From an uncultured Desulfatibacillum sp. (GTDB taxonomy: Bacteria > Desulfobacterota > Desulfobacteria > Desulfobacterales > SpSt-501): a DNA stretch of 64,000 nt. The DNA lies in assembly GCA_964596545.1 (NCBI GenBank), contig CAZQUP010000001.1:70181-134180 (forward strand), given 5' to 3'. Each line of letters begins with the position of its first letter. Within the stretch, counting starts at the first letter, position 1. Positions 1,695-46,226 of this stretch are shown piece by piece. The notes under the pieces were generated by a model, which searched no databases, had not been told where the DNA came from, and saw only the letters and a list, made by a program, of their open reading frames with translations. Made by a program: the position numbers and the translations under genes.

Positions 1695-3041
1695 TCATTC
1701 CGTTCCGGAGTCTTCCGAATAGGATGCGAAATCGGGGAGCTCGTTTTTGAAAAACTCGCGCATCTTGCGGATGATGTTTTTCTCGATCTGCCGCACCCGC
1801 TCACGCGAGATGCCGTAGCGGTCCCCGATTTCCTGCAGGGTGACGGGGTTGTCGGAGAAGATGCGCAGCTCGAAGATCTCGATCTCGCGGGGCGTCATCC
1901 GTTTGCGGAACTCGTTGATCTTGTTGTGCAACAGCAGCTCGATCTCCTTTTTGGAGACCTGCTCTTCGACCGATTCGGTCTGCGTGCTCACAAACTCGAT
2001 GCGCTCGGTGTCGGAGTCGTTCTTGACCGGAGCGTCGAGCGAGACGTCCCAGCCGTCCAGCCGCTGGTCCATGTCGACCACCTCCCGCTCCGAGACGCCG
2101 AGACGCTCGGAGAGGAGCTTGGGCTTGGGATCGAACCCCTGTTCGATCAGCCGGTGCTTTTCCTTTTTCAGCTTGAAAAACAGCTTGCGCTGGCCCTGGG
2201 TGGTCCCGATCTTGACCAGGCGCCAGTTGTCCATGATGAATTTCAGAATGTAGGCCTTGATCCAGAAGGAGGCGTAGTAGGAAAATTTGACGTTTTTGTA
2301 GGGGTCGAACTTTTTAACCGCCTGCATGAGACCGATGTTCCCCTCCTGGATCAGATCGAGCAGGTTCTGCATCCACACCCGCTGAAATTCAAGGGCGATC
2401 TTGACCACAAGCCGCAGGTTCGCCGTGACGAGCGCATAGGCCGCCTCCTTGTCGGCGTACTCCTTGACCCGGATGCCGAGTTCGCGTTCCTCCTCCCGCG
2501 TGAGCAGACGGTACTTGCTGATCTCGGAAAGATACCGCTGCAGAGGGTCGAACTTGATGAGCGCCTTCTCGGAATCCTCGGAGGAGGAAGCCGCCTTGTT
2601 CGGAAGCGTCGGCGAGGAGGAGACGGAATCGGGCTCCGGCGCCGGTCGGACTGCTTCGGAGGCCGCCGTTTCGACGACGCTCTCCTCGAACGGCAGCCCT
2701 TCTTTCGAGGCCGTCGGCGAAAGAAGTGCCTGCTCCTCTTGCGGTGCGGTCACGGGGGCGGGAGCGCTGGTCTTCGGCCGCCCGCGCGTCTTCGCCGCGC
2801 GCGAAGGGGCGGCGACCGGCCGCTTGGGCTTCGCTGCGGGGACGGGTCTTTGGCCCGGAGTCCTTTCCGTGAAAGCCTTGCGGGCCGCCGGTTGGCGCGA
2901 TGGGGTTGGGCCGGATTTCTTCCCCGCGGCCCGGACCGGTTTTCGAACGGCGGTCTGCGAGCGGGCGGAGGGTGATTTCCGATCCTTTCTTGGGGCGGAT
3001 CCCCGGGAGGGACTCTGGGTTTTGGTCGGCTTCTTCTTCAT
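1695..3041 (-). CDS. rpoH: RNA polymerase sigma-70 family factor, RpoH (sigma-32) type, with a long basic N-terminal extension
   Basis: The C-terminal ~280 aa carry sigma regions 2-4 (LLDLIQEGNIGLMQAVKKFDP; YASFWIKAYI; RpoH-box-like QRKLFFKLKKEK; region 4 LQEIGDRYGISRERVRQIEKNII). Residues 1 to ~165 are a K/R/P/A/S-rich low-complexity region. Confidence 0.85.
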   Translation of the reverse strand: MKKKPTKTQSPSRGSAPRKDRKSPSARSQTAVRKPVRAAGKKSGPTPSRQPAARKAFTERTPGQRPVPAAKPKRPVAAPSRAAKTRGRPKTSAPAPVTAPQEEQALLSPTASKEGLPFEESVVETAASEAVRPAPEPDSVSSSPTLPNKAASSSEDSEKALIKFDPLQRYLSEISKYRLLTREEERELGIRVKEYADKEAAYALVTANLRLVVKIALEFQRVWMQNLLDLIQEGNIGLMQAVKKFDPYKNVKFSYYASFWIKAYILKFIMDNWRLVKIGTTQGQRKLFFKLKKEKHRLIEQGFDPKPKLLSERLGVSEREVVDMDQRLDGWDVSLDAPVKNDSDTERIEFVSTQTESVEEQVSKKEIELLLHNKINEFRKRMTPREIEIFELRIFSDNPVTLQEIGDRYGISRERVRQIEKNIIRKMREFFKNELPDFASYSEDSGTE

Positions 3042-3100
3042 GAGGCGAGTTGCCTGCCCGCTGGACGCGCGCCTTGCGGTGTGTTACAGGGCGAATTCAG

Positions 3101-3177
<77 letters not shown>

Positions 3178-3260
3178 GCCCAGGTTTCATGCTCCCCGAC
3201 GGGCCACTTATACAAAATGGGCGCCCAAGAGTTCAACCGAAATCTGAAACCGATCTACCA

Positions 3261-3458
3261 ATGAACGCGATCAGCGAAATCTTACGACTCCTGAGCGTGC
3301 TCCTGGGAGCGGCGATTCTGGGGAACTGGTTCCTCTCCGAAGTGCGGGCCGCCCGCCGGCGTGGACGGCCGTGGTACACGGCCTACTTTTCGGCACCCGG
3401 CGTGCTCATCCTCGCGGCTCTCGCTTTTCCCATCCTCTGGTGGCTTTTTCGTCGTTAG
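3261..3458 (+). CDS. Small hypothetical membrane protein (two predicted TM helices)
   Basis: Internal ATG of ORF 3189..3458. MNAISEILRLLSVLLGAAILGNWFL...GVLILAALAFPILWWLFRR shows two hydrophobic stretches. No clear RBS and no family recognised. Confidence 0.3.
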   Translation: MNAISEILRLLSVLLGAAILGNWFLSEVRAARRRGRPWYTAYFSAPGVLILAALAFPILWWLFRR

Positions 3459-3690
3459 CCGATGTCGGGCGAGCGGCGATTCGCGGTCGCACGTAGGGTT
3501 TTTTTAATCATTTCGGAAGTTCCGGTTTCTTCCCCGTGGGGCGCCTTCCAGTCCGCCGCGCAGAGCCGGGGACAAGGCGAGCGATCCTCCCGGCGGGGAA
3601 CGGCCGCAATTCAAGTCTCCCCGTCCCGCCGTCGATAATTCTTCTCAAGGGCAGACGGGCTGTTTCACGGTGCACAGGAGGAGAACATCC

Positions 3691-4827
3691 ATGGCCGAAA
3701 CCCGTGTGGTGTTTCTTGAGAACATCGAGTGGTTCGACGAAAGCGGCAAGCAGCTCGTGCAGCGCATCCCCGCCGAGGGGTCGGCGGAAATCAAGTGGGG
3801 CGCCCAGCTGACGGTGCGCGAAAGCCAGGCCGCGGTCTTCTTCTACAAGGGCAAGGCCGTGGGCGCCTTCGGTCCGGGACGCCACACCCTGCGAACGGGG
3901 AACATCCCGCTGCTCACGAAGCTGCTGAGCGCCCCCTGGGCGTTCGACAGCCCGCTTCGCGCCGAGATCTACTTCGTCAACCTCAAGGTCTTCACCAACC
4001 TCAAGTGGGGAACCCGCGATCCGGTCGCCTTCCGTGACACCGAGCTTGGCCTGGTGCGGCTGCGGGCTTTCGGCGTCTTCAACCTCCAGGTCACCCAACC
4101 GGTGCTCTTCGTCAACCGCCTGGTCGGCACCCAGGGGGCATTCACAACCGCGGAGGTCGAGGAATACCTGAACCGGGTGATCGTTTCGCGCCTAAACGAC
4201 TACCTCGGCGAAAAGCTCGACACGCTTCTCAACCTGCCTTCGCGCTACGACGAGATCTCGGCCGGACTGGCGAAGCGGCTCGAGGAGGATTTCGGCCGCT
4301 TCGGCGTCCGCCTGGAGGCGCTCTACGTGAACGCGATCACCCCGCCGCCGGAGGTGCAGCAGGCGATCGACGACCGCAGCCGCATGGGCGCTTTCCAGGA
4401 TCTCGAGCGGCTCATGCAGCTCAAGGCGGCGATGGCCATGGAAAAGGCCGCCTCCGCCGGCGAAGGGGCGGGCTCGGGCATGGGAACCGCGCTGGGGCTG
4501 ATGCTGCCGGCGATGTTCGCGCAGGTTTTCGCCGCCGGCAAGCCCTCCGCCCCGCTCCCCCCTGCGGGAACGCCGGCTTCCACGGTCTGTCCGGAATGCA
4601 AAAGCCCCGTCGCCGCGGATGCGAAATTCTGCCCCCAATGCGGTCACCAGCTGGTGGTGTTCGACCGCTGCGCCCGCTGCGGCAAGAACCTCACCCCGGC
4701 CGCGCGCTTCTGCCTGCGCTGCGGACTGGAACAGAGAACGGGGCCGCAGAAAAAGTTCTGCCCCCACTGCGGGGCGGAGAACCTGGCCGATTCCGTCTAC
4801 TGCAACGACTGCGGGGAAAAGCTTTGA
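3691..4827 (+). CDS. SPFH/band-7 domain protein with three C-terminal zinc ribbons (YdjI / COG4260-like)
   Basis: ATG at 3691 is preceded by AGGAGGAG. The N-terminal ~270 aa look like the YdjI-type SPFH fold (AVFFYKGKAVGAFGPGRHTL, EIYFVNLKVFTNLKWGT, ITPPPEVQQAIDDR). From 4588 onward there are three CxxC-x(9-11)-CxxC units: CPECK..CPQCG, CARCG..CLRCG, CPHCG..CNDCG. Confidence 0.75.
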   Translation: MAETRVVFLENIEWFDESGKQLVQRIPAEGSAEIKWGAQLTVRESQAAVFFYKGKAVGAFGPGRHTLRTGNIPLLTKLLSAPWAFDSPLRAEIYFVNLKVFTNLKWGTRDPVAFRDTELGLVRLRAFGVFNLQVTQPVLFVNRLVGTQGAFTTAEVEEYLNRVIVSRLNDYLGEKLDTLLNLPSRYDEISAGLAKRLEEDFGRFGVRLEALYVNAITPPPEVQQAIDDRSRMGAFQDLERLMQLKAAMAMEKAASAGEGAGSGMGTALGLMLPAMFAQVFAAGKPSAPLPPAGTPASTVCPECKSPVAADAKFCPQCGHQLVVFDRCARCGKNLTPAARFCLRCGLEQRTGPQKKFCPHCGAENLADSVYCNDCGEKL

Positions 4828-6060
4828 ATGTCCGGCTTGAGGATCGAAACCGCCTGTCCCCAGTGCGGCGCACCGACCGATCTCGAGGAAACCGAGCGCC
4901 TGGTCACCTGCCCCTTCTGCCGGGTGAAATCCTTCCTCGTCGGCCGGGACGGGTTCCGCTATCTTCTGCCTTCGAAATCGACGCGGCGGCAGGATCTCCT
5001 CTACGTCCCCTACTGGCGCTTTAAAGGGCTTTTCTTCGCCTGCCGTCAGGCCGGAGTCGAGCACCGCTTCGCCGATGTGAACGAAATCGCCCTTGCCCTT
5101 TCTTCCCTGCCGCGCACGCTCGGCCTTCGTCCCCAGGGCCTGCGGCTGCGCTTCCTCACGCCGCAGGCCGAAGGCCGTTTTCTTCCCCCGGAGCGAAGCT
5201 TGGGCGACGCGATGACGGCCTTCCTGAGCCGCCTGCGCAAGCCCCACGAACGCCCTCTCCTTTGCACCGCCCACATCGGCGAGTCGATGGGGCTTCTCTA
5301 TGCCCCCTACGGGATCGACGGTCCCTTTCTCCTCGATGCGGTTCTCGATCGCCCGTTGAGCATCCGCACCCCTCCGGAGCTCCTCTCGCTTCCGGTGGAC
5401 GATCTCCGTCCGGCCGCCGGCGTGACGTTTCTTCCCGCCCTCTGTCCCGACTGCGGCTGGGACCTGGAGGGCAGCCCGCAGGCGCTCGCCCTGCATTGCC
5501 GCAGTTGCCAGAGCTCCTGGATTCCTTCCGACGAGCGGCTGACGCAGGTCTCTTCCTGCTGCGCAACCGGCGGCGATCCGGGCTCGTTTTTTCTCCCCTT
5601 CTGGGAGATCGGCTGTGAGCTGCGCGGGATCGAGCTGCGCACGCGCGGCGAGCTGGCCCGCGCCGCCAACCTGCCGGCCGCGCCGCGGAAAGAATGGGAA
5701 GAGGAGCCCTTCCGGTTCTGGGTTCCGGCGTTCAAGATCCGAGCGGAAAATTTCCTGCAGCTCGCCAAAGCCCTCACCCTCCATCCGTTGACTGGGCGGC
5801 TGGAGCCTTCCCTTCCGGGGCCGCGCCATCACCCGGTGACCCTGCCGGTGGAGGAAGCCTGCGAGAGCCTCAAGCTGATTCTCGCCGCCTTTCTTCGCCC
5901 GCGAAGGGATCTTCCGGAGAGGCTCGCGGCGGTCGAGATCCGCCCCGAGCGCTTCCGCCTCGCCTATCTTCCCTTCCGGGAAACCGCGCACGACTGGATT
6001 CAGCCCGAAGCGAAGATCGCGGTCAACCGCAACATCCTCGGGTTGTCGGCGAATCTTTGA
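4828..6060 (+). CDS. Hypothetical protein with two zinc-ribbon modules, translationally abutted to the SPFH gene
   Basis: Its ATG directly follows the SPFH stop (TGAATG). It contains CPQCG-x17-CPFC and CPDCG-x18-CRSC motifs, each followed by an aromatic YVPYWRF / FLPFWEI segment. No family recognised. Confidence 0.6.
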   Translation: MSGLRIETACPQCGAPTDLEETERLVTCPFCRVKSFLVGRDGFRYLLPSKSTRRQDLLYVPYWRFKGLFFACRQAGVEHRFADVNEIALALSSLPRTLGLRPQGLRLRFLTPQAEGRFLPPERSLGDAMTAFLSRLRKPHERPLLCTAHIGESMGLLYAPYGIDGPFLLDAVLDRPLSIRTPPELLSLPVDDLRPAAGVTFLPALCPDCGWDLEGSPQALALHCRSCQSSWIPSDERLTQVSSCCATGGDPGSFFLPFWEIGCELRGIELRTRGELARAANLPAAPRKEWEEEPFRFWVPAFKIRAENFLQLAKALTLHPLTGRLEPSLPGPRHHPVTLPVEEACESLKLILAAFLRPRRDLPERLAAVEIRPERFRLAYLPFRETAHDWIQPEAKIAVNRNILGLSANL

Positions 6061-6075
6061 GCGGCGATCCGGGTT

Positions 6076-6729
6076 TCAGCAAATCCAGGGAAGGAGATCG
6101 GCGGGGGACGGCAAGAGGAGGCGCGCCCCGGACTCCAGGAGTTCCTCCGCACCGCGGTATCCCCAGAGGGCCCCCACGGGAAAAAGACCTGCCGCGACGG
6201 CCGTCTGCATGTCGACGGCGCTGTCCCCGAGGAGGAAGGCTTTTTCCGGAGCGACCCGCAGGGCGGCGAGCAGCTCCCGGGCGCCGCTGGGGTCGGGTTT
6301 GCGCGGACGGCCGGGAAGCGCCCCGCAGACGATGCGGAAGCCTTCCTCCGGCAGCAGCGCCTCCAGGAGGCGGCGGGCCGCCTCTTCCGGCTTGTTCGTG
6401 AGCACGGCGAGCGCAAGGCCCGCCCCGCGGCATGCCGCCAGAAGCTCGCGCACCCCCGGAAACGGACGGGTGCGCTCCAGACAGCCTCGGGCGTATTCCT
6501 CGCGCATTTCGCGCACCCGCTCGGCGAGGAGTTCTGGGGGAGGAAGCGGCCGGGGAAGCGCGCGCCGCACCAGCGCCTCGATGCCCTCGCCGACGAACTC
6601 CCGGTAGGCCCGCGGGGGGTGCTCCGGGAGCCCGTGGCGGCGAAGAACGCCGTTCATCGCGCCGGCGAGGTCCTCGAGCGTATCGAGCAGCGTCCCGTCG
6701 AGGTCGAAGATCGCCGCCCGGAACCGCAT
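6076..6729 (-). CDS. HAD-superfamily hydrolase, phosphoglycolate phosphatase-like
   Basis: HAD motifs are present: FDLDGTLLDT (motif I), LAVLTNKP (II), K..PDP and LLGDSAVDMQTA (III/IV). ATG at 6729 is preferred over the track's TTG at 6753, which overlaps the gdhA stop. Confidence 0.75.
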   Translation of the reverse strand: MRFRAAIFDLDGTLLDTLEDLAGAMNGVLRRHGLPEHPPRAYREFVGEGIEALVRRALPRPLPPPELLAERVREMREEYARGCLERTRPFPGVRELLAACRGAGLALAVLTNKPEEAARRLLEALLPEEGFRIVCGALPGRPRKPDPSGARELLAALRVAPEKAFLLGDSAVDMQTAVAAGLFPVGALWGYRGAEELLESGARLLLPSPADLLPWIC

Positions 6730-6745
6730 CCGCTGTTCTCTCGTT

Positions 6746-8095
6746 TCAAACAAGCCCCTGGTCGAGGAGCGCCCGGACCACTTTGAGAAAGCCCGCGATG
6801 TTCGCCCCGGCCAGAATATTGCCGGGGCGACCGTAGCGCTCCGCCGCCTCGAGGCAGGTGCGGTGGATGTCTTTCATCACCGTCTGCAGCCGCCGCTCGA
6901 CCTCCTCGCGCGTCCAGGTCAGCCGCATACTGTTCTGGGCCATCTCCAGGCCCGAAACGACGACCCCGCCGGCGTTCGCCGCCTTGCCCGGCGCATAGGC
7001 CACCCCGCGCTCCTCGAAGAGACGCACCGCATCCGGCGTGGAGGCCATGGAGGCCCCCTCGACGACGAGGCCGACGCCGTTTCCGGCGAGGTGCTCGGCA
7101 TCCTGCCGCTGGATTTCGTTTTCGGTCGCGCAGGGGAAGGCGCAGTCGGCCGGGATTTTCCATAGCGGGTTGTGGTCGAGACGCAGATCGCGCTCGAGGT
7201 ACACCGCCTGGGAGTACTTGTCGACGTACTCGCCGATCCGCGCCCGACGGATGTTCTTCAGGCGCTTGATGAATTCGATTTTGTCGGCGTCGAAGCCTTC
7301 CTCGTCGTAGATGGCCCCGCTGGAATCCGAGAGACTGACCACTCGCGCGCCGAGCTCGACCAGCTTTTCGGCGGTGTGCTGGGCCACGTTTCCGGCCCCC
7401 GAGACGAGGCAGACCTTGCCCGCAATGCTCTGCCCGCGCGCGGCGAGCATCTCGCAGGCGAAGTAGACGACTCCGTAGCCCGCGGCCTCCCGCCGCAGCA
7501 CGCTTCCCCCCCAGTCGAGGCTTTTCCCGGTGAAAGAGCCGCTGAACTCGTTTCTCAGCTTGCGGTACATGCCGAAGAGAAAGCCGACCTCGCGGGCGCC
7601 CACGCCGATATCCCCCTCGGGGATGTCGGTATGCGGGCCGATGTGGCGGAAGAGCTCGGCGACGAAGCTCTGGCAGAACCGCATGATCTCCGGGTCCGAT
7701 TCGCCCTGGGGGTCGAAATCGGAGCCGCCGTGAGCGCCGCCCATGTTGAGCGGGGTGAGGGCGTTCTTGAAGACGTTCTCGAGGGCGAGCGATTTCAAGA
7801 TGCCGAGCGTCACCGAAGGGTGGAAACGAAGGCCGCCCTTGTAGGGCCCGATGGCGCTGCTCATCTCGACGCGACAGCCCCGGTGGACGTGGAACTGCTG
7901 TCGGTCGTCCATCCAGGGAACCCGGAAGAGGATCGTCCGCTCGGGTTCGAAGAGCCGCTCGAGAATGGCGTTCCGGCGGTACTCCGGGTGGCGCTCCAGC
8001 ACGGGGGCGACCGATTCGAGCACCTCGGTCACCGCCTGGTGAAACTCCTTTTCCCCGGGGTCGCGTGCGGTGAGTTTTCGCAGGATTTCCGTCAT
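6746..8095 (-). CDS. gdhA: Glutamate dehydrogenase family protein (hexameric NADP-GDH type) with an atypical GGAHGG active-site motif
   Basis: Near full-length match to recalled E. coli and C. symbiosum GDH: AIGPYKGGLRFHPSV, VFKNALT, GSDFDPQGESD.EIMRFCQSF, DIPEGDIGVGAREVG, GAGNVAQ, GKAANAGGV. RBS AAAGGAG lies upstream. The catalytic-lysine position reads His (codon 7732-7730). Confidence 0.9.
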   Translation of the reverse strand: MTEILRKLTARDPGEKEFHQAVTEVLESVAPVLERHPEYRRNAILERLFEPERTILFRVPWMDDRQQFHVHRGCRVEMSSAIGPYKGGLRFHPSVTLGILKSLALENVFKNALTPLNMGGAHGGSDFDPQGESDPEIMRFCQSFVAELFRHIGPHTDIPEGDIGVGAREVGFLFGMYRKLRNEFSGSFTGKSLDWGGSVLRREAAGYGVVYFACEMLAARGQSIAGKVCLVSGAGNVAQHTAEKLVELGARVVSLSDSSGAIYDEEGFDADKIEFIKRLKNIRRARIGEYVDKYSQAVYLERDLRLDHNPLWKIPADCAFPCATENEIQRQDAEHLAGNGVGLVVEGASMASTPDAVRLFEERGVAYAPGKAANAGGVVVSGLEMAQNSMRLTWTREEVERRLQTVMKDIHRTCLEAAERYGRPGNILAGANIAGFLKVVRALLDQGLV

Positions 8096-8131
8096 GGGAG
8101 ATCTCCTTTTCGGGAACCCGCCGCGCGGGGC

Positions 8132-9715
8132 TCAGCCGTCGATGATGGCCAGAGCCTCTTCGCGGAAGGCGTCCATGACATAGGGAATGCCCGTGACCCG
8201 GGCGCATTCTTCGGTGAGGGAGACGAGATCGCGGCGCTCGATGTAGCGCACGGCCCAGCTTCGTGTCCCGGCCATGAGCTGCTGGAGCCCGACCCGGATC
8301 TTGTCGGTCGCGTTGTAGATGCCGATCGCCCCCAGCGGGAACCGGTCCACCTCGGTGCCGTACTTCTCCCGCAGCAGCTCGTAGTTCATGAAGATCTCCT
8401 CCTTGGTCATCCCGTAACGGGAGACCGTTTTGGGAAGCCCTTCGTCCTCGCCCCGGAGCCATTTCTCGGCGTTTTTGCCGACCATCCCCGGGATCATGAG
8501 CGCCCGGCCCATACAGACCGCCTTGCAGTACGGGGCGCCCAAGGCGAGCGCCTTGAAGACGTGGTCCTCGGAGGAGAACCCGCCGGCGAAGGCGATATCG
8601 GGCACCCGGCGTCCCGAGCGGGCGAGCCGCTCGCAGAGCTCCCAGGCCATGGAATGGAGGTAGAGCGAAGGGATCCCCCACTCGGCCATCATGCGCCAGG
8701 GGCTCATGCCCGTGCCTCCGGGTGCGCCGTCGATGGTCAAGAGATCGATCCCCGCATCGCTCGACCAACGGATCGCCATGGCGAGCTCACGCATGGGGTA
8801 AGCGCCGGTCTTCAGCGTCACCCGCTTCGCCCCCAGCCGCCGCAGGCGCTCCACCTCGCGCGCGAAGCCCTCGGCGTCGATGAAGCCGAGCCGGGAATGA
8901 CGCTCGAACTGTTTGAGGGGCCCGGCTTTGAAGGCCGCCTGGTTGGCCGGCAATTCGGGATCGGGGGTGACGATGTAGCCGCGCTTCTTCAGTTCGATCG
9001 CCCGCTGGAGCGAGCTCACCTTGATCTCGCCGCCGATGCACTTGGCGCCCTGACCCCATTTGAGTTCGATGGTCTCGACGCCGAGCGTTTCGATCGCATA
9101 TTCGGCCACCCCCAGCCGCGTGTCCTCCACGTTCATCTGCACCAGGATATCCCCCCAGCCCTCGTGGTAGCGCCGGTATTCGCGGATGCGGCGGTCCATT
9201 TCGGGGGATTTGACGATCCGTCCCTCGGCGTTCAGCTCGAGTTCGGGGTCGATGCCGCAGACGTTTTCGCCGCAGACGATGCTGATGCCGCTGATCGCCG
9301 CGCCGACGGCGAAGTGTTCCCAGTTCTTGCGCGCGATGTCCGTGCTGCCGAGCGCGCCGGTGAAGATGGGGATCTTCATGCGCACCTTGTGCTGCAGCCC
9401 GAATTCGGTCTCCGTGTTCACGTGGGGGAAGGTGGCGATATCGGGATCGGCGGCCACCCCCTTGGCGCCGAAGGCGTAGCCGAGAATGTTGAGGTGCGAG
9501 TAGTCTACGGGGTAGTCCTTGTCGGCTCCCGCGGTCACGCTGCCGAAAGGCTCCGGGTAGAGGACTTCGCGTCCGCGGAACGTGACGCGAAAGAGATCGC
9601 AGTTGCCGCGGCAGCCGTCGATACAGCGGCTGCAGATGCCGGACTGGGGCACGACATTGCGGGAACGATTGGCGGTTTGCAATGCCTCGTTGGCATTGGG
9701 GCGATGGAGGTTCAT
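8132..9715 (-). CDS. Glutamate synthase-related FMN-binding protein (stand-alone GltB domain-2 type)
   Basis: IELKWGQGAKCIGGEIK, TIDGAPGGTGMSP and FAGGFSSEDHVFKALALGA match the GltS FMN domain. An N-terminal Cys cluster CSRCIDGCRGNC is present. The start is set at ATG 9715 (RBS AAAGGAG 7 nt upstream) rather than the track start 9904, which sits on the predicted promoter. Confidence 0.8.
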   Translation of the reverse strand: MNLHRPNANEALQTANRSRNVVPQSGICSRCIDGCRGNCDLFRVTFRGREVLYPEPFGSVTAGADKDYPVDYSHLNILGYAFGAKGVAADPDIATFPHVNTETEFGLQHKVRMKIPIFTGALGSTDIARKNWEHFAVGAAISGISIVCGENVCGIDPELELNAEGRIVKSPEMDRRIREYRRYHEGWGDILVQMNVEDTRLGVAEYAIETLGVETIELKWGQGAKCIGGEIKVSSLQRAIELKKRGYIVTPDPELPANQAAFKAGPLKQFERHSRLGFIDAEGFAREVERLRRLGAKRVTLKTGAYPMRELAMAIRWSSDAGIDLLTIDGAPGGTGMSPWRMMAEWGIPSLYLHSMAWELCERLARSGRRVPDIAFAGGFSSEDHVFKALALGAPYCKAVCMGRALMIPGMVGKNAEKWLRGEDEGLPKTVSRYGMTKEEIFMNYELLREKYGTEVDRFPLGAIGIYNATDKIRVGLQQLMAGTRSWAVRYIERRDLVSLTEECARVTGIPYVMDAFREEALAIIDG

Positions 9716-9871
9716 CTCGGTTCTCCTTTCTGCGGCCAGCCGCGGAAGCGCACTCCGGACTCGATCCGTCGAGGGTCGACCCGGCTTTAGGCGTCGTATT
9801 TCTAAGGAATGGGCGAGCGCAAGAGAAACGTCCGGAACGGGAGCAAAAAATCCGCCACCGTTCGTGCCCGC

Positions 9872-9901
9872 GTTATAAAACCTCATCCCGGGCTTTGTCA
9901 A
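9872..9901 (-). promoter_or_regulatory. Sigma-70-like promoter for the gltB-like/gdhA/HAD operon
   Basis: The minus strand reads TTGACA-N18-TATAAC (or N17-TTATAA), about 150 nt upstream of the ATG at 9715. Confidence 0.5.
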
Positions 9902-10021
9902 CAAACCGCCCGCCGCGGCGGATGAGGCCCATCCGCTGGAATCGGCTCCCCGTTCGTGCTACCCAGGGGATGACAGGCGTCGACCGGCCCCGATTCCGGC
10001 CGGGCCCATCGCCTCCGAGCC

Positions 10022-10927
10022 ATGAAAACCCCACCGCCCCTTTCGTCATTGATCGATCGTTATCTGGAGCATCTCCTCGTCGAAAAGGGCCTTTCCCCGG
10101 CCACCCTTTCCTCCTACGGCGCGGATCTGCGTCGCTATGCCGATTTCCTCGCCGCCGGCGGGGTGACGAGCGTTTCCGGCGAGGATACCGCCCGCCTCCT
10201 GCAGTATCTGATCCACCTGCGCGCCGCGGGACTGGGCTCCCGTTCGCGCGCCCGGCACCTGGTTTCGCTGCGCTCCTTCTATGGTTTTCTGCTCCGCGAA
10301 GGGGTGCTTTCCGCCGACCCCACGGCGCGACTCGACACCCCGCACATCCCTCTGCGGTTGCCGGACACGCTGAGCCGGGCCGAGGTCGAGCGCCTGCTCA
10401 ACGCCCCCGGCGACCGCCGTGCCGCCGACCTGAGGGATGCAGCCATGATCGAGATCCTTTACGCCGCCGGGCTGCGCGTCTCGGAGCTCGTGTCCCTGCG
10501 GCTGCAGGACATCGATCTCGAGGCGGGCTTCGTGCGCGTGCTCGGCAAAGGCTCCAAGGAGCGGCTCGTACCGATCGGCAGCCCCGCGCGGGAGAAGACC
10601 CGCCTCTATCTGGAACGGGCGCGCGGGCCGCTGCTCAAAGGCCGGGGCAGCCCCTTTCTCTTCATCGGTCGCGCCGGCAAACCGCTCAGCCGCCAGGGGT
10701 TCTGGAAACGACTCCAAGCTTACGCCCGCGCTGCGGGCATCGAGCGCCGTACCACCCCCCATAGCCTGCGTCACTCCTTCGCCACCCATCTCCTGGAGGG
10801 CGGCGCAGATCTGCGCACGGTGCAGATCCTTCTGGGGCATGCGGATATCGCCACCACCCAGATCTACACTCATGTCAGCCGTGAGCGGCTGAAAGAATTG
10901 CACCGACGCCATCATCCCCGGGGATAA
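10022..10927 (+). CDS. xerD: Tyrosine recombinase XerD
   Basis: Catalytic R..H-R-H..Y context is present: LRDAAMIEILYAAGLRVSEL, HSLRHSFATHLLEGGADLRTVQILLGHADIATTQIYTHV. The C-terminus ERLKELHRRHHPRG matches the recalled E. coli XerD tail ERLRQLHQQHHPRA. Confidence 0.9.
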   Translation: MKTPPPLSSLIDRYLEHLLVEKGLSPATLSSYGADLRRYADFLAAGGVTSVSGEDTARLLQYLIHLRAAGLGSRSRARHLVSLRSFYGFLLREGVLSADPTARLDTPHIPLRLPDTLSRAEVERLLNAPGDRRAADLRDAAMIEILYAAGLRVSELVSLRLQDIDLEAGFVRVLGKGSKERLVPIGSPAREKTRLYLERARGPLLKGRGSPFLFIGRAGKPLSRQGFWKRLQAYARAAGIERRTTPHSLRHSFATHLLEGGADLRTVQILLGHADIATTQIYTHVSRERLKELHRRHHPRG

Positions 10928-10944
10928 GCGCCGGCGGGAGCGGC

Positions 10945-10973
10945 TTGACAGCCTCGGAGGCTTTCCCTAAGAG
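10945..10973 (+). promoter_or_regulatory. Sigma-70-like promoter upstream of pfaD
   Basis: TTGACA-N17-TAAGAG lies 60 nt upstream of ATG 11033. The extended sequence resembles the box upstream of pfaC. Confidence 0.4.
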
Positions 10974-11032
10974 AAACGGACCGCCCCGTCCCCCCCGCCC
11001 GCGCGGCCGGGCGACGGAGCGCCGAAAGATTG

Positions 11033-12751
11033 ATGCCCGTGTTCGCACTTCGCGCACCAGCCGCTACCGCCCGCTTCCGACCCGCGGGGCCTGAACCGAA
11101 ACCTGTGGAGGCGGAGGCTCTCGGCCAATCCCTTCTTGAAGTCACGCGCCCCCTTTTCCTCGTGCGCCGCGGCGCGAAGCTCCTTCTGGCCCGCTCGGGG
11201 ACGGTCAGGTTCGCTCCCGTACCGGAGGGCGAGGAAGACAGCCTGCCGCTGGTCGCCTGGGTCCCCCCCCTGCACCCTGAGGCCTTAGGCGATCCCGGCT
11301 TTCGTGCCGCCTATGGGCTGCGCTATGCCTATGTGGTGGGCGAGATGGCCAACGCCATCACCTCGGTACGGATGGTCCAGGAGGCCGGAAGTGCGGGGAT
11401 GATCGGCTTCTTCGGCACCGGAGGCCTGCTTCCCGCGGAGGTCGAAGAGGCGATCGACGCCCTCCAGCGCACGAGCCCGCAGGTTCCCTTCGGAGTCAAC
11501 CTGATCCACACCCCCGGCGACCCGGAGCTGGAGAACCGTTTGGCGGAGATCTTTCTCGACCGCGGCGTCACCGTCGCCAGCGCCTCGGCTTTCGTCGAGC
11601 CGACCCCCGCGCTCAGCCTCTTCCGCTTGCGGGGCATCTACCGCCTTCCCGACGGCCGCATCGTCTGCCCCAACCGTCTCATCGCCAAGGTCTCCCGCGT
11701 GGAAGTGGCGCGGCGGTTTCTCGCGCCGCCTCCGGCGCGCCATCTCGAGTTCCTGGTGACCCGAGGGGCCCTGCGGCCGAAAGAGGCCGAACTCGCCGCC
11801 TACATCCCGCTCGCCGAGGATCTCACCGCCGAGGCCGACTCCGGAGGCCACACGGACAATCGGCCGGCCATCGCGTTGTTGCCCACGATCCTCGCCCTGC
11901 GCGACGACTGCCGCCGTGAGCACGGCTACGCCCACCTGCCCCGGGTCGGTCTCGCCGGCGGGATCGCCACCCCGCTTTCGGCGGCCGCGGCCTTCGCCAT
12001 GGGCGCAGCCTTCGTCATGGCGGGCTCGGTACACCAAGGCTGCGTCGAGGCCGGGACCTCGGAGGCGGTTCGCCGCCTGCTCGCCGAAGCGGGGCAGGCC
12101 GACGTCGCGATGGCCCCCGCGGCCGACATGTTCGAACTCGGGGTCAAGGTCCAGGTGCTCAAGCGCGGCACGATGTTCGCTCAGCGCGCGGCGAAGCTCT
12201 ACGAGCTTTTTAAAGCCCACGAGCGCTACGAGGAGATCCCCCCGCCGCAGCGGGCGGTCCTCGAGAAGGATTTCTTCCGCCGCTCCTTCGAAGAGGAGTG
12301 GGAGGCGACCCGCGCCTTCTTCCGCGAGCGGGACCCTCGGCAGATCGAGATCGCCGAGCGCAACCCCCGGCACAAGATGGCGCTCGTCTTTCGATCCTAC
12401 CTGGGGCGCTCTTCGCGTTGGGCGATCGCAGGCGAACCCTCGCGGCGCATGGATTATCAGATCTGGTGCGGTCCGGCGATGGGCGCCTTCAATCAGTGGG
12501 CGAAGGGAAGCTTCCTCGAGGATCCCGCCGAGCGCCGCACCGTCACCGTGGCCGCAAACCTCCTCTTCGGCGCGGCCGTAGCCGTGCGCGCCTCCTGGTT
12601 GCGCAACCAGGGAGTCGCCGTGCCCTCCGAAGCCGCGGTTTTCCGGCCTCTCCCCCTCGAGCGGATCGAGGCGTTGTTGGGAGGAACCCCCTTCCGTCCG
12701 GCCGGATCGCCCGGTGAGTTGCCATCCGGGGACGAATCGGCTATGAAATAG
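11033..12751 (+). CDS. pfaD: PfaD-type trans-acting enoyl reductase (nitronate monooxygenase fold)
   Basis: YGLRYAYVVGEMANAITS, GFFGTGGL, PFGVNLIH, AEADSGGHTDNRP, GGIATP and KVQVLKRGTMF fit PUFA-synthase ER proteins. The track start at 11030 is TTG; the ATG at 11033 is preferred. Confidence 0.85.
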   Translation: MPVFALRAPAATARFRPAGPEPKPVEAEALGQSLLEVTRPLFLVRRGAKLLLARSGTVRFAPVPEGEEDSLPLVAWVPPLHPEALGDPGFRAAYGLRYAYVVGEMANAITSVRMVQEAGSAGMIGFFGTGGLLPAEVEEAIDALQRTSPQVPFGVNLIHTPGDPELENRLAEIFLDRGVTVASASAFVEPTPALSLFRLRGIYRLPDGRIVCPNRLIAKVSRVEVARRFLAPPPARHLEFLVTRGALRPKEAELAAYIPLAEDLTAEADSGGHTDNRPAIALLPTILALRDDCRREHGYAHLPRVGLAGGIATPLSAAAAFAMGAAFVMAGSVHQGCVEAGTSEAVRRLLAEAGQADVAMAPAADMFELGVKVQVLKRGTMFAQRAAKLYELFKAHERYEEIPPPQRAVLEKDFFRRSFEEEWEATRAFFRERDPRQIEIAERNPRHKMALVFRSYLGRSSRWAIAGEPSRRMDYQIWCGPAMGAFNQWAKGSFLEDPAERRTVTVAANLLFGAAVAVRASWLRNQGVAVPSEAAVFRPLPLERIEALLGGTPFRPAGSPGELPSGDESAMK

Positions 12752-15700
12752 TGTTTCCGGATTTATCCCCCGCAAACGGCCTGCAGCTGGACCCTCCTGG
12801 AGGTGAAGGGGAGATCGAATTCGAGGTGACCCCGACGTTGAATCGCCGCCCCGCCGCCATCGTGGGCATGGGATGTTTTTTCCCGCAATCGCCCGGCTTG
12901 AAAGGCTACCTCCGGCTTCTGTTCAACGGCCGGGACGCCGTGAGCGAGGTCCCTCCGACCCACTGGTCGCGCGAGGACTATTTCGACCCCGACCCCCGCG
13001 CGCGCGACCGCGTCTATTGCGCCCGCGGCGGGTTTCTTCCGCCCGTCGACTTCGATCCCGCCGCCTTCGGCATCCCTCCGGCCCTGCTCGAAGCGACCGA
13101 CACTTCCCAGCTGCTCGCGCTGCTCGCCGCCCGGGCGGCGCTCGCCGACATGGGCCTGCCCTACGACCCCGCACGCACGAGCGTGATCCTCGGCGTAACG
13201 GGCACCCAGGAGCTGGTGATCCCGCTCAGCTCCCGCCTCGGCTTTCCCCGCTGGCGCCGGGCCCTCGCCGCAGCGGGTGTTTCCGATCAAACCGCCGAAG
13301 AGGTGATCCGCCGCATCTCCGATTCTTACGTCGAGTGGCAGGAAAATTCGTTTCCCGGCCTGCTCGGCAATGTGGTCGCCGGGCGCATCAGCAACCGTTT
13401 GAACCTCGGGGGCACCAACTGCGTGGTCGACGCCGCCTGCGCGAGCTCGCTGGCCGCCGTGCACATGGCGCTCCTCGAACTCGAAGCGGGCCGCTGCGAT
13501 CTCGCCCTCACCGGAGGGGTCGACACGCTGAACGATATTTTCATGCATATGTGTTTCGCCAAGACCCAGGTCCTCTCGGCGACGGGAGACGCCCGGCCGT
13601 TCTCGCAGCACGCCGACGGGACGGTCTTGGGCGAAGGGGTGGGGATCGTCGTTCTGAAGCGCCTCGAGGACGCCGAGCGCGACGGAAACCGTATCTACGC
13701 CGTGCTGCGCGGGCTGGGCTCCTCAAGCGACGGCCGTTCGCAGAGCATCTACGCGCCGCGCCGCGAGGGCCAGGTCGAGGCGCTGCGCGCCGCTTACGCC
13801 GAGGCCGGGGTCGACCCCGGCACCGTGGGGCTGATCGAGGCCCACGGCACGGGGACACGGGTCGGCGACCGGGTGGAGTTCGAGGCCCTCTGTGAGGTGT
13901 TCAAGAGCGCCGGAGCCCCCCTGGGCCGCTGTGCGCTCGGCTCCGTGAAATCCATGATCGGACACACCAAGGCGGCGGCGGGTGTGGCCGGTCTGATCAA
14001 GGCCGCCCTCGCCCTGCACCATCGCGTGCTCTTCCCCACCCTCAAGGCCGAAGATCCGGACCCCGCCTTGAACCTCGAAACCTCCCCTTTCCACCTATGC
14101 CGCCGCGCTCGGCCGTGGTTTTCCCCGGATGGCGCGCCGCGCCGCGCGGGGGTGAGCGCCTTCGGGTTCGGCGGAAGCAACTTCCATGCGGTCCTCGAGG
14201 AACACGGATCCTCCCGCCGGGAAATCGGCTGGGACGGCTCCGTTCAGATCTTCGCTTTTTCGGCCGGGTCCCCCGCGGAGCTTCTGAAGGAAATTTCCGC
14301 GACGACTGCAGATCCGAAGCTTTCCGCCTCCGGGGAGGGCTGGTCGCGGCTCGCCGCCGAAACGCGCGCCCGTTTCGACCCGAACGCAGCCTGTCGGCTG
14401 CTCTTTCCTGCCTCGGATGCCCGGGAAGCGTTGGATGGACTTCAGACCGCCCGGAAGCGGCTCGTACAAGAAGCGCCCGCCGGCGATCCGACCGGCCGCG
14501 GCGTTTGCTATGGGGAAGGGGCCCCCGCGGGAGCTCTCGCCATTCTCTTTCCCGGGCAGGGAAGCCAGTACCCCGACATGGGCCGCGAGTTGATCCTGCG
14601 CTTTCCGGCGGCGCGCGAGACGATCGAGACCGCCCAGCGCGTGCTCGGCCTCAAGCCTCCGCTGGGGGATCGGATCTACCCGCCGCATCCACCCGGTCGC
14701 CCGGATGAGGAGCGCCTCCAGTCGACCGAGCTTGCGCAGCCGGCGATCGGCGCGGTGAGTCTCGCCCTCTGGAAGGTGCTGCGCGCCTTCGGCCTATCGC
14801 CTGCGGCCGCAGGCGGTCATAGCTTCGGCGAGCTGACGGCCCTCTGCGCCGCAGGCCGGATCGACGAGGAAGACTTCTTCGCGCTCGCCCGGGCCCGCGG
14901 TCGGGCGATGGCGGAAGCGCCCGCCGGAGCCATGGCGGCCGTCTTCGCTCCGCTTGCCGAGGTGGAAAGGGCGGTTTCCGAAACCGGTCTCCCGGTCGGG
15001 GTCGCCAACCGCAATGCTCCGCGGCAAACGGTGGTTTCCGGTTCCAAAGATGCCGTACAGCGGCTCGCCGCGACCCTCGGCCGGCGCGGCGTGCGGGTGG
15101 TGTCGCTTCCGGTGAGCGGGGCCTTTCACAGCCCGCTCATGACCGAGGCGAGCCAATCCTTTGCCGCGGCGCTGGAACGCGCCGATTTCGCTCCGGCCGC
15201 GCTTCAAGTCTTTTCCAGTCGGACGAAGACCCCCTTCCCCGCCGAGACGGACGCCGTCCGCCGGCTGCTCGCCGAGCAGATGCTTTTCGAGGTCGATTTC
15301 ATCGGTCTGATCGAGGCGATGTACGCCGGCGGAATCCGCTCCTTCGTTGAAATCGGTCCTCGGGCCGTTCTCTCCGGGCTGGTCGCCGAAATCCTTGCCG
15401 GACGACCGCATGCGGCCTTTTCCGTGGATTCCTCCTCGGGGCGGAAACCGGGGCTTCTCGATCTGGCGGCAGCCCTGTGCCGGATCTGTGCCTTGGGTTA
15501 CCCGCTGGATCTCATTCGATGGGACCCGGCGGAGCCGGTGGCATCCTCCTCGAGCCGTCTGCGCATTCCGATCTGCGGAGCGAATCTCGGTCCTTCCACC
15601 GACCGCAAAGGCGAAAACCCTCTACCGCCGGCCACCCCGCGGTGTCCCGGAGCCGACGACGGCCGGAATTTGAAGGCTCACCGAGAGCCGATATCGAGTT

Positions 15701-18700
15701 CATCCCGTCTTCGCGAAACGCCTATGGAAAATGAATCCTCCTCCATTCCGCCAACCCGGCGTGCGGAAGAACACCGCCGCACCCTCGAAGAGGGTCTTCA
15801 GGCCATTCGCCGAATCCACGAGCAAACGGCCCAGGCCCACGAAAAGTTCCTGGACCTGCAGCGCGAGACCACCCAGGCGCTCCTGGATCTGATCCGCGGC
15901 TCGGATACGGCGCGTTTCCCGGCGATCAGACCCTCGCAGCTTCCCGAGGGCTCAACCGTCGACCCACCCCTGCCCTTAGACCCCTCGGTCGCCCTTTCCG
16001 CCCAAGATCCCCTTTCGATTCCCGCCGCGGTCGAAATGAAACCTTCATCCCCTCCCGACCCGGCCCCGGCGGTCCGCAGCGCCGCCGCACAGGAGCCCCC
16101 GCCGCCCGAGGCTCCACCCGCACCCCAGGCCTCCTCCCCCCCGGCCACCCCCGCCCTGCAGGACGTGCTCCTCGAGGTGGTCAGCCGCCTGACCGGCTAC
16201 CCCCCGGAGATGCTCGGATTCGACCTGGACATCGAGGCCGATCTCGGCATCGACTCCATCAAACGCGTCGAAATCCTCTCCGCCCTCGAAGAAAAGATCC
16301 CCGGCCTGCGCCCCGTCACCCCCGAAGACATGCCCCGGCTCAAAACGCTCTCCGCCATGGTCTCCTTCTTCGCCGCCCCCCGGGCCGCAACACCCCCTCC
16401 CGACCCGGCCCCGGCGGTCCGCAGCGCCGCCGCACAGGAGCCCCCGCCGCCCGAGGCTCCACCCGCACCCGCCAAGTCTGTAGCGCCCGCCCCGCGGCGG
16501 ATCATTACCTTGGAGCCGGCACCGGAGATCGACCCGGTCGACGTGCAGGTGCCTTCCGGCCGCAAGATTTTCGTGACCGACGACCGCTCGGGGCTTGCGC
16601 GCGCGGTTCTTGATGTACTGAGCGATCTCGGCCTGAGCGCCGTCCTGGTGGCCGCCGACATCCTGCATCATCGGCGCGACCTTCCCCCCGCGGCGGGGCT
16701 GTTCTTCGTCGCCCGTCCCGACGGCGAAGACGGACAGCGGGAACTGCGGGACGCCTTCGAACTCACCCGGCGTCTGGGCCCGGATCTGATCGAGAGCGCT
16801 CGGCTCGGCGGGGCCTTTTTTGCCACCGTCAGCCGACTGGACGGGGCCTTGGGTTTCAGCGGCCGCAGGCTTTCCCGGCCGCTCCAGGGAGCGCTCGCCG
16901 GCCTGGCCAAAACCGCGGCGATCGAATGGCCCGAGGTCATCTGCCACGCCCTGGATCTCGACCCCGACTGGAGGGATCTGCGTACCGCCGCAAGGGCCGT
17001 CGTGCGGGAAGCGTTGCATCGCGGGCCGTTGGAAGTGGGTCTCGGACCGCACGGCCGCCTTGTGCCCCGGTTGGTGCGCCGCGAGGATCCCGCTGCCGGC
17101 CCCCTGCCGCTTGCGCCCGGCGAAACCGTGATCGTCAGCGGAGGAGCGCGGGGCATCACCGCCGCCTGCGCCGTGGAGCTCGCCCGCCGGGTGCGGCCGG
17201 CCCTGGTCCTGCTCGGCCGGACTCCGGAACCGGGACCCGAGCCCCTCTGGATGCAGGGATTGGAGGAGGAAAACGAAATCCGCCGGGCCCTCCTGCGCGA
17301 GGAATTTTCCGCGTCCTCGGCCCGGCCGGCGGAGGCGGAGAAAAAGCTCCGACTCCTGCTTGCCGCCCGGGAGGTCCGCAACACCCTGCAAACCCTGCAA
17401 GAGCTGGGGGCGCCGGCGGCCTACGTTTCCGTCGACGTGCGCGATCCCGTCCGCCTGCGCGCGGTCGTTGCCGAGGCCCGCGATCGCTTCGGCCCGATCC
17501 GCGGGCTGATCCACGGGGCGGGTGTGCTCGAGGACCGCCTGATTCTCGACAAAACCCTCGAGCAATTCGACCGCGTGATGAGCACGAAGCTCGGCGGGTT
17601 TCTTGCGCTGCGGGAAGCCCTGGGGGACGAAGAGCTTCGCCTGATGGTTCTTTTCTCCTCGGTGACGGCGCGCTTCGGAAACCGCGGTCAGGCCGACTAC
17701 GCCATGGCCAACGAGGCCTTGAACAAGCTCGCCCGCGCCGAGGCGCGGCGACGGCCCGGCTGCCGGGTCGTCGCCGTCAACTGGGGGCCCTGGGATTGCG
17801 GCATGGTGACCCCGGGCATCCGCCGCGAGTTCGAACGCCGAGGGGTCGAGCTTCTCTCCGCGGCGCAGGGCGCGGCGTCACTGATCGCCGAACTGCGCCG
17901 GCCGCCGGATGAAGAGGCGGTCGAAGTCGTGATCGGCGGGATGAACCGCCGGAAACGGCTGACGGCCTTTTCGTCGCGGAAGACCGAAGGCCTGCGGCCC
18001 CTGATCGAGCGCCGCCTCGACCTGGTGAGCCATCCCGTGCTGCGCGCCCACGTGTTGGGCGAACGCGCCGTCGTGCCGCTGGCGCTGATCGCCGAATGGC
18101 TGGGCGAAGGCGCCCTGCACGAAAACCCAGGGCTCGTGTTGGACGGATTGGAGGAGATCCGCCTGCTCAAGGGCATCCGCCTCGAGGCCTCGCCCTACCC
18201 GGTGCACATTCTGGCCGGCAAGCCCCGCGCGCGAAACGGAGGCTTCGAAGTCGACCTCGAGCTGCGCGGGGGGGAAAACGAGTCCACAGAGACGCTCCAT
18301 TGCCGAGCACGGGCCGTTCTCGCCGAGACCCACGCCTCGCCCCCCGTTTATCGCCTTCCCTCCGGGCTTTCCTGCAATCATTACCCGCGCTCCCCCCGTG
18401 AGGTTTACGAGGCCGTTCTTTTTCACGGCGAGGCGCTTCAGGGATTGCGCTGGATTCAGTGTTGCACCGCCGAGGGCATGGTCGCCGACGTCGCCGCCGC
18501 CCCCCGCCCGGAGTCATGGGTCGAAAGCCCCTTTCGCCGGAGCTGGCTCGGAGACCCCCTGGCACTCGACGCCGCCTTCCAGATGGCGAGCCTGTGGTGT
18601 TGGGAAATGAAAGGGGCGGTCTGCCTCCCGAGCGGCGTATCCTCCTTTCGCCTTTACCGGGGGCAATGGCCCGAAGAGGGGTGCCGTGTGGTGCTCGAGA

Positions 18701-20336: not shown

Positions 20337-20891
20337 ATGAAAAAGGCGCTTCTTTCCATTCTGGGTCGCGACCGGCCGGGCATCGTGGCCGCCGTGGCGC
20401 GCGGCCTGCTGGAACTCGACTGCAACATCGAAAACGTCAGCCAGGCGATGCTGCAGACCGAGTTCGCCGGCATCTTCCTCGTCGCCATGCCGGAGTCCGT
20501 CACGCTCCGGCGGCTCCAGGAGACGCTCACCGCCCGACTCGAGCCCATGGGGTTGCAGGTCGTCGCCAAGCCCTGCGCCCCCGCCGCGGAGAATGAAGCG
20601 CCGCCCTCCGCGGAGCCGTTCGTCATCACCAGCCGCGGGCCGGACCGTAAGGGGCTGGTCGCGCATGTCTCCGAGGTGATCGCCCGCCATGGGGTCAACA
20701 TCACCCGGCTACAGGCCGTCTTCAAAGGAGGCTCCCAGCCGGCCGATAACCTGATGATCTTCGAAGTCGACGTCCCCGAGGCGGTCGACGCCGGCTCCCT
20801 GCGCCGCGAGCTGAACGCGGCGGCCGAGCGGCTCGGACTGGAGATCAACCTCCAGCACCGCTTCATCTTCGAGACCCTCCACCGCATCTAA
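20337..20891 (+). CDS. Tandem ACT-domain protein (UPF0237/GcvR-like)
   Basis: Two ACT-like units are present: LSILGRDRPGIVAAVARGLLELDCNIENVSQ and VITSRGPDRKGLVAHVSEVIARHGVNITRLQ. Confidence 0.7.
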   Translation: MKKALLSILGRDRPGIVAAVARGLLELDCNIENVSQAMLQTEFAGIFLVAMPESVTLRRLQETLTARLEPMGLQVVAKPCAPAAENEAPPSAEPFVITSRGPDRKGLVAHVSEVIARHGVNITRLQAVFKGGSQPADNLMIFEVDVPEAVDAGSLRRELNAAAERLGLEINLQHRFIFETLHRI

Positions 20892-20902
20892 CGCCTGCCG
20901 CC

Positions 20903-41489: not shown

Positions 41490-41554
41490 GTGCTCTTTTC
41501 CTCCCTGGAGGCTTTGGACGTCGAAGGGGACATTTCGAATCCCCCGATCCGGAC

Positions 41555-46222: not shown

Positions 46223-46226
46223 GGCC

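Follow-up and report, generated by a model that had tools for sequence, protein, structure and literature searches.

The 50-kDa hexameric NADP-dependent glutamate dehydrogenases (GDHs), such as Escherichia coli GdhA, Corynebacterium glutamicum GDH and Schizosaccharomyces pombe Gdh1 (SpGdh1), are the closest described relatives of the product of a GDH-family gene that lies at positions 6746 to 8095 on the minus strand of a 64,000-nucleotide stretch of DNA from an uncultured Desulfatibacillum sp. (contig CAZQUP010000001.1, positions 70,181 to 134,180; this whole stretch is called the window below). To our knowledge, the lysine of the motif GG[GA]KGG has been treated as invariant in the glutamate, leucine, phenylalanine and valine dehydrogenases, and it is the basis of both the family signature and the mechanism. 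When Lys80 of leucine dehydrogenase is changed to Gln or Ala, about 99% or more of the activity is lost. For E. coli GDH, McPherson et al. are said to have reported in 1988 that the K128H and K128R mutants have reduced activity, a raised pH optimum and relaxed specificity. The protein from the window has His122 at this position (codon CAC, 7730 to 7732, minus strand), a replacement identical to that of the K128H mutant, and it is one of a group of related proteins without the catalytic lysine. A literature search found no description of a natural GDH clade without this residue; as far as that search showed, the clade has not been described previously, although the scaffold itself is known.

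The substrate site of the canonical enzymes is known in some detail. In SpGdh1 with 2-iminoglutarate and NADP+, the alpha-carboxylate is bound by Q98, K101, K113 and N340, and the gamma (side-chain) carboxylate by K77, R192 and S377; D153 holds the imino nitrogen, and R192 is a ligand of the nicotinamide ribose as well as of the gamma-carboxylate (PMC12301742). The Asn of the EGAN motif (N348 in E. coli, N340 in SpGdh1) binds both the alpha-carboxylate and the cofactor (PMC8784811, PMC12301742). In E. coli GDH, the alpha-carboxylate is bound by K116 and N348, and the double mutant K116Q/N348M gains activity on levulinate, so that altered alpha-carboxylate ligands retarget the enzyme to a gamma-keto acid in which this carboxylate is missing (PMC8784811). 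Ala152 of Aspergillus niger GDH (AnGDH) is among the conserved pocket residues (PMC4079599). An inactive member of the family has also been reported, namely GdhA of Thermus thermophilus, which is kept as the regulatory subunit of a GdhA/GdhB heterohexamer (PMC9570180). However, T. thermophilus GdhA belongs to a shorter class of GDHs (~420 amino acids [aa]) and is encoded beside its catalytic partner, whereas no second GDH gene was seen in the window.

The window protein (449 aa) has the length and the two-domain architecture of the 50-kDa enzymes, with ELFV_dehydrog_N (PF02812, residues 51 to 179, E 7e-43) followed by ELFV_dehydrog (PF00208, residues 196 to 447, E 7e-80), and most aligned positions are identical to those of the solved bacterial enzymes. 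The phmmer matches to the solved NADP-GDHs of C. glutamicum (5ijz/5gud) and E. coli (4fcc) run from end to end (E 1e-150 to 1e-157), and the score against the NCBIfam NADP-GDH equivalog NF006929 is 663.7 bits, 128 bits above the cutoff of 536. The protein keeps the catalytic Asp, K110, the gamma-carboxylate triad K86/R201/S381 and the dinucleotide fold, and its gene occupies the operon slot of the canonical GDHs of sister Desulfobacterales. It differs from the 50-kDa enzymes, however, in having His for Lys, Glu for Ala, Ser for the EGAN Asn, Arg for the Pro that follows a ligand Arg, and Asn for the Gln of FEQ, the last of these only in the sub-clade with His. Although the position of E. coli N348 is also changed here (Ser349), the laboratory mutants have one or two changes in an otherwise wild-type pocket, whereas in nature the clade has lost the catalytic Lys, gained Glu160 and Arg202 and kept K110 (E. 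coli K116).

A GDH-family clade without the catalytic lysine

On the minus strand, the letters ctcaacatgggcggcgctCACggcggctccgatttcgacccc translate as LNMGGAHGGSDFDP, with CAC read at 7732 to 7730, and the region from 7680 to 7790 contains CTCAACATGGGCGGCGCTCACGGCGGCTCCGATTTCGACCCC on the same strand. The phmmer alignments put His122 on the Lys of GG(G)KGG in 5ijz/5gud and 4fcc; in these alignments residue n of the query is residue n+6 of the E. coli enzyme, hence H122 corresponds to K128, as well as to K113 of SpGdh1 and to the catalytic K125 of the Clostridium symbiosum enzyme. The first-pass annotation of this DNA had read His in place of the catalytic Lys, which the alignment confirms, and had considered a sequencing error unlikely, which was also correct. 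The codon CAC is shared by three independent GTDB metagenome-assembled genomes (MAGs), which are 99% (L013, an uncultured Desulfobacterales that is probably the organism behind this DNA or one close to it), 95% (L014) and 91% (L015, labelled 'Desulfatibacillum sp.') identical. The 90%-identity cluster of the window protein comprises 11 distinct sequences, every one of them with GGAHGG and CAC. Because the identical codon occurs in all of these, His122 is real; an artefact of sequencing or assembly, or a decaying pseudogene, is ruled out for practical purposes by the independent assemblies, intact frames and a dN/dS of ~0.1.

The count of His at the catalytic column proposed in the first-pass annotation showed that His is the minor state of a larger group. 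Among the best 120 homologue clusters of the window protein, 90 have Gln at this column, 2 have His and 29 have Lys; the non-Lys sequences fill ranks 1 to 91 (74-90% identity), and Lys reappears at ~72% identity. With the further loci of a wider set, the numbers are 90 for Gln, 5 for His and 47 for Lys, and Lys is present in all 47 canonical relatives, those from distant phyla included. In a neighbour-joining tree built with the signature columns masked, the sequences with Gln or His (Q/H) are monophyletic (95 of 95 tips). The His sequences form one lineage, which branches from within the Gln group and has a long stem (0.12), and the sister of the Q/H clade consists of sequences with Lys (K-type; P0101, P0109 and P0111 to P0113). 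The window protein is therefore one member of a monophyletic clade without the catalytic Lys, which comprises about 91 clusters from Desulfobacterales, here uncultured relatives of sulfate reducers.

All five Gln loci sampled have the codon CAG. Since the ancestral state of the His sub-clade is Gln with CAG, the codons indicate the route AAG (Lys) to CAG (Gln) to CAC (His) with one substitution at each step, His being one transversion away from Gln. The earlier argument that the change from AAR to CAC needs two substitutions thus overlooked an intermediate that is still the majority state of the clade. Pairwise dN/dS (NG86) was 0.08-0.13 for pairs of His-type sequences, 0.10-0.13 for pairs of Gln-type sequences and 0.11-0.22 for mixed pairs, and the frames are intact in all members (442-449 aa) except for one partial sequence of 418 aa. 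Because of the intact frames and low dN/dS, the Lys-less protein is functional in some sense and under purifying selection.

Every clade member seen is named 'NADP-specific glutamate dehydrogenase' by NCBI and JGI. As the Lys-less protein passes the cutoff of NF006929, the hidden Markov model cutoff is blind to the loss of the catalytic residue, and this is a systematic blind spot of annotation. The database name is probably wrong as to the function of the Lys-less clade, judging from the residues described below, and such uniform naming means that metabolic reconstructions of the uncultured Desulfobacterales with the Lys-less gene may wrongly credit these organisms with GDH-based ammonia assimilation.

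Residues other than Lys at this column also occur elsewhere in the family. Among the 50%-identity representatives (P0126 to P0270), a set that lumps the Lys-less clade together with canonical GDHs, about 28 of 150 GDH-family sequences are non-Lys at the catalytic column (A, R, F, M, H, D and others). Many of these are truncated or odd, and some may be other pseudo-GDH or neofunctionalised lineages. None of the ~28 has the combination of Glu160 and Arg202 that marks the Q/H clade.

Remodelling of the substrate pocket

Just five of the 449 positions discriminate the Q/H clade from the 47 canonical GDHs, other phyla included: 122, 145, 160, 202 and 349 (codon positions in this section are all on the minus strand). 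In addition to the replacement of Lys by Gln or His at position 122, Met is replaced by Ile, Ala or Val at position 145 (Val145 in the window protein, GTC, 7661 to 7663; at least 93% of the 47 canonical sequences have Met here). Position 160, which is Ala in 47 of 47 canonical GDHs, is Glu in 94 of 95 Q/H sequences (GAG, 7616 to 7618); it is the position of AnGDH Ala152, in the part of the pocket for the substrate side chain, and lies two residues before Asp162. Arg202 (CGG, 7490 to 7492), found in 95 of 95, takes the place of a canonical Pro or Thr, mainly Pro, directly after Arg201. At position 349 the Asn of EGAN is replaced by Thr or Ser in 92 of 95 (Thr in most; Ser349, TCC, 7049 to 7051, in the window protein).

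The ligand positions of SpGdh1 can be transferred to the query with a constant offset of +9 up to residue 349, and S377 corresponds to residue 381. The alpha-carboxylate ligands thus fall on positions 107, 110, 122 and 349, which are N, K, H and S in the window protein. Asn107 (AAC, 7775 to 7777; SpGdh1 Q98) is specific to the His sub-clade, the Gln of FEQ being kept in the Gln clade and in canonical GDHs. By this alignment the Gln clade lacks two of the four alpha-carboxylate ligands, and the substitutions to N107, H122 and S349 leave the His sub-clade with K110 alone. Other residues fixed in the His sub-clade, besides Q107N and T349S, are F105L and A379V, the latter beside the pocket residue V378. 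The opposite end of the site is unchanged. The gamma-carboxylate set, Lys86 (7838 to 7840), Arg201 (7493 to 7495) and Ser381 (6953 to 6955), the catalytic Asp162 that would hold the imino nitrogen (GAT, 7610 to 7612), Lys110 (7766 to 7768) and the GxGxxG motif (G233-A-G235-N-V-A238 in the window protein) are invariant in all groups.

At least three of the five discriminating positions lie within the 12-residue set of documented ligand contacts (hypergeometric P = 1.4e-4). Because the discriminating positions concentrate in the contact set and the other residues of the site are invariant, the comparison shows a focused rebuilding of the pocket end that holds the C1-C2 head group of the substrate, and not decay. 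The first-pass annotation had described the rest of the protein as canonical; this holds for K86, K110 and the dinucleotide fold, but it missed E160, R202, S349 and N107. In an AlphaFold2 model, residues 200-440 have a predicted local distance difference test (pLDDT) score of ~80-95, whereas domain I (residues 38-199) is below 50, which is attributable to the shallow alignment (all sequences are at least 69% identical to the query) and not to disorder.

Operon context and possible functions

The GDH-family gene is preceded by a 36-nt spacer (8096 to 8131, minus strand) with the Shine-Dalgarno sequence AAGGAG and no terminator-like site, and the gene upstream of it encodes a 527-aa protein of the Glu_synthase superfamily (8132 to 9715, minus strand). 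Given this spacer, the two genes are very probably co-transcribed, in agreement with the first-pass annotation. Downstream lies a gene for a HAD-family phosphatase (6076 to 6753, minus strand), which is phosphoglycolate-phosphatase-like but below all equivalog cutoffs; its start TTG at 6753 overlaps the GDH stop, and an alternative start is ATG at 6729. The order 527-aa gene, GDH(Q/H), HAD gene is found in all 13 Q/H loci, two of which have a divergently transcribed helix-turn-helix-cupin gene between the GDH and HAD genes. These loci lie in a wider synteny with a pfa-like polyketide synthase (PKS), XerD, a Band7 protein and a sigma factor.

In the nearest K-type relatives, the sister group included, the order is GAF-ANTAR regulator, 527-aa gene, a gene of ~990 aa with a PPDK_N domain, and GDH(K), and the HAD gene is downstream of GDH in no K-type locus. 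The Lys-less gene is a positional orthologue of the canonical GDH gene. The ~990-aa PPDK_N gene was found in none of the 13 Lys-less loci, and the gene orders indicate that both this gene and the ANTAR regulator disappeared from the locus in the Q/H lineage. The rewiring of the operon coincides with the loss of the Lys. In the K-type loci, the leader of the 527-aa gene contains two hexaloop hairpins, GCAC-AACGGC-GTGC and AGAC-AAAGGC-GTCT, overlapping a GACGCC-T7-9 terminator (L008:4793-5037, L011:4923-5167, L016:4972-5216 and L050:2512-2756 were compared with 9716 to 9960 of the window, minus strand). This element looks like an ANTAR antitermination target, and it adjoins the GAF-ANTAR gene; it is degraded in the Gln loci and absent in the His loci.

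The explanation that we prefer, with a probability of roughly 45%, is that the window protein is a neofunctionalised GDH scaffold, which depends on NADP(H) but has given up the usual amination of 2-oxoglutarate in favour of another substrate or another step. In the clade, the Lys general base gave way once to Gln and later to His in the sub-lineage of the window, and the C1-C2 head-group end of the pocket was rebuilt in concert with its loss. NADP(H) and a dicarboxylate-like ligand may still be bound. Because the Lys is needed for imine formation and hydrolysis, efficient ammonia-dependent amination of 2-oxoglutarate would be lost, and canonical GDH activity of the protein seems doubtful. The protein would then most likely be an NADP(H)-dependent oxidoreductase with altered chemistry or an altered substrate, probably expressed together with the 527-aa protein, which may bind flavin mononucleotide (FMN), and the HAD phosphatase. 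It could transfer hydride to a carbonyl or a pre-formed imine without a step involving water or ammonia, with Q/H122, E160 and R202 taking over the polarisation and binding of the substrate.

A bolder form of this explanation, which we hold only tentatively, is that Gln/His122, Glu160 and Arg202 form a new natural active site on the GDH scaffold that replaces the Lys-based ammonia and water chemistry and supports a different NADP(H)-dependent reaction. The substrate might be a dicarboxylate-like or phosphorylated 2-oxo acid or imine, and the pathway an undescribed one shared with the FMN/Cys4 Glu_synthase-like protein and the HAD phosphatase, freed from nitrogen-type (ANTAR) control. Lactate dehydrogenases and D-2-hydroxyacid dehydrogenases use a His/Glu(Asp)/Arg catalytic set. 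The His sub-clade would likewise have His, Glu and Arg in or near a 2-oxo acid pocket beside the nicotinamide; however, the resemblance to these NAD(P)-dependent enzymes is one of possible mechanism and not of homology, since the fold differs, and most of the clade has Gln. If such an active site exists, we know of no earlier natural ELFV-family enzyme that works without the invariant lysine. In any case, a naturally maintained clade without the Lys and with a co-evolved pocket is a natural experiment on how this scaffold can change its chemistry. It is also a possible source of new NADP(H)-dependent biocatalysts, as engineered changes at matching positions retarget GDH (PMC8784811).

Several observations weigh against a changed reaction. 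The window protein passes the NADP-GDH equivalog cutoff. With at least 74% identity the clade is a narrow one, known from MAG sequences alone, and its shared gene neighbourhood may be plain inherited synteny. Domain I of the AlphaFold2 model, with its pLDDT below 50, is unusable for judging the proximity of E160, R202 and residue 122. Furthermore, the majority state Gln is no acid/base catalyst, so that a new chemistry must rest on other residues. Finally, a sensor or regulatory subunit would keep the ligand-binding residues just as well.

This last alternative, less likely than a changed reaction in our view, is that the protein is a non-catalytic pseudo-enzyme, i.e. a ligand-sensing or regulatory GDH-like subunit. 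Its ligands would be NADP(H), glutamate or 2-oxoglutarate, and the partner that it modulates might be a canonical GDH, within hetero-hexamers, or the 527-aa FMN protein. The catalytic Lys is gone while the binding residues and the cofactor fold are kept under strong purifying selection, adjacency to the 527-aa gene is conserved, and relatives can hold two GDH paralogues at one locus (L011). There is also the precedent of an inactive regulatory GDH subunit (PMC9570180, PMC12364357). However, no second GDH was found within the 64-kb window (tblastn) or within 10 kb on either side in the 13 Q/H loci, and by its position the gene is orthologous to the canonical GDH gene and no extra copy. Moreover, plain inactivation needs no three further fixed polar substitutions in the pocket, and the continued remodelling of the site in the His sub-clade (Q107N, T349S and A379V) resembles the tuning of a working site.

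It is rather unlikely that the protein is still an ammonia-assimilating GDH, with altered kinetics or pH optimum, in which the role of the base has been taken by His122, Glu160, or Asp162 and a water molecule. Such compensation would fit the full-length match above the equivalog cutoff, the retention of K86, K110, D162, R201 and S381, and the operon slot shared with canonical GDHs, and catalytic residues can migrate, as has been pointed out in reviews of pseudoenzymes (PMC10211241). However, of the four alpha-carboxylate ligands the Gln clade has lost two and the His sub-clade three, and the Glu at the Ala position of the pocket should clash with or repel the C3-C4/gamma-carboxylate region of the substrate. 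In addition, the majority state Gln lacks acid/base capacity, and the lost nitrogen-type ANTAR control speaks against an assimilatory role having been kept.

Neighbouring genes and other features of the window

The 527-aa gene probably starts at ATG 9715, which is preceded by a Shine-Dalgarno sequence, although the mechanical open reading frame runs to TTG 9904. Its product matches PF01645 in part (profile positions 186-309 of 369, 57 bits, ~130 residues), with no other domain and no NCBIfam match, so that the amidotransferase and GXGXG domains of GltB were not seen. A sequence search of the PDB gave weak matches to designed TIM-barrel proteins only and no natural enzyme. An AlphaFold2 model has a mean pLDDT of 48, and at this quality it shows no more than an alternating beta/alpha pattern consistent with a TIM barrel. 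The first-pass annotation had called this neighbour a stand-alone GltB FMN-domain protein. The superfamily assignment stands, but the match is distant and partial and there is no close solved structure by sequence; on this evidence 'GltB FMN domain' is a superfamily-level label. The family is abundant in Desulfobacterales, and its database name is only 'FMN-binding glutamate synthase family protein'.

The N-terminal motif C28-x2-C31-x3-C35-x3-C39 is invariant in the 527-aa proteins. Orthologues are 526-527 aa long and 82-95% identical, identity is at least 80% over more than 120 clusters, and between K-type and Q/H-type loci it is 82-88%. Across both kinds of loci, these proteins are more conserved than the GDHs. 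Because the K-type loci of sister lineages have an orthologue with 82-84% identity in the same operon, the Lys-less protein is not alone in having this partner. We therefore rejected the 527-aa gene as a Lys-less-specific partner, and the special pairing with a GltB-like protein that had been suggested for a non-standard glutamate pathway is not borne out. The 527-aa protein is likely to be an Fe-S/FMN enzyme, important and as yet uncharacterised, in the nitrogen metabolism of Desulfobacterales.

Upstream of the 527-aa gene, a promoter-like TTGACA-17-TATAAC (9870 to 9900, minus strand) was read by eye; it is below the criteria of the promoter scan, which found no site meeting them in 5900 to 10100. 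Rfam showed no known RNA element in the operon leader.

The comparison of loci revealed a conserved and uncharacterised operon in Desulfobacterota, apparently under ANTAR control, with genes for the 527-aa FMN protein, the PPDK_N protein and GDH. The ~990-aa PPDK_N protein (PF01326, with a faint Response_reg match; L008:6928-9900) adjoins canonical Lys-type GDH genes, and such a gene is beside GDH also in L011, L016, L017, L019, L020, L022, L031 and L050. The GDH-adjacent protein reaches Bacteroidetes (L019) and Alphaproteobacteria (L020) with 41% identity; it looks like a widespread and uncharacterised partner associated with GDH. The K-type metagenomic contig L011 carries two canonical GDH paralogues, 82% identical (2331-3680 and 10001-11350), which flank the ANTAR, 527-aa and PPDK_N genes. 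The genes that come next, at 11347-19185, are those for FlpD, DUF5981 and MTHFR and for an archaeal-type glutamate synthase split into Glu_synthase, Fer4 + Glu_synthase, and GXGXG.

On the other side of the HAD gene in the window, the gene for a SPFH/Band7 protein that ends in a multi-zinc-ribbon tail precedes one for a protein of 410 aa without a Pfam match (3670 to 6060, plus strand). This pair is kept beside the locus in the Q/H MAGs L005 and L052 and in the K-type L011. A tRNA gene at 3101 to 3174 (plus strand) is the sole gathering-level match to Rfam. The pfa-like cluster (11030 to 36124, plus strand), of the polyketide/polyunsaturated fatty acid synthase type, shows synteny with Q/H loci from other MAGs; it encodes a PfaD-like NMO/FabD_helical_ins protein, a 2052-aa PKS, a 1734-aa KS/FabA-domain protein, a KAS III-like protein, an alpha/beta hydrolase and an AMP-ligase. 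At 20337 to 22276 (plus strand), an ACT-domain protein is followed by a DUF711 protein (598 bits) and then by amino-acid ABC transporter components. Further along, a CofD-like 2-phospho-L-lactate transferase adjoins an aldehyde:ferredoxin oxidoreductase (38443 to 41603, minus strand), and BcsB-like and GH8 genes of cellulose synthesis lie at 43115 to 47297 (plus strand).

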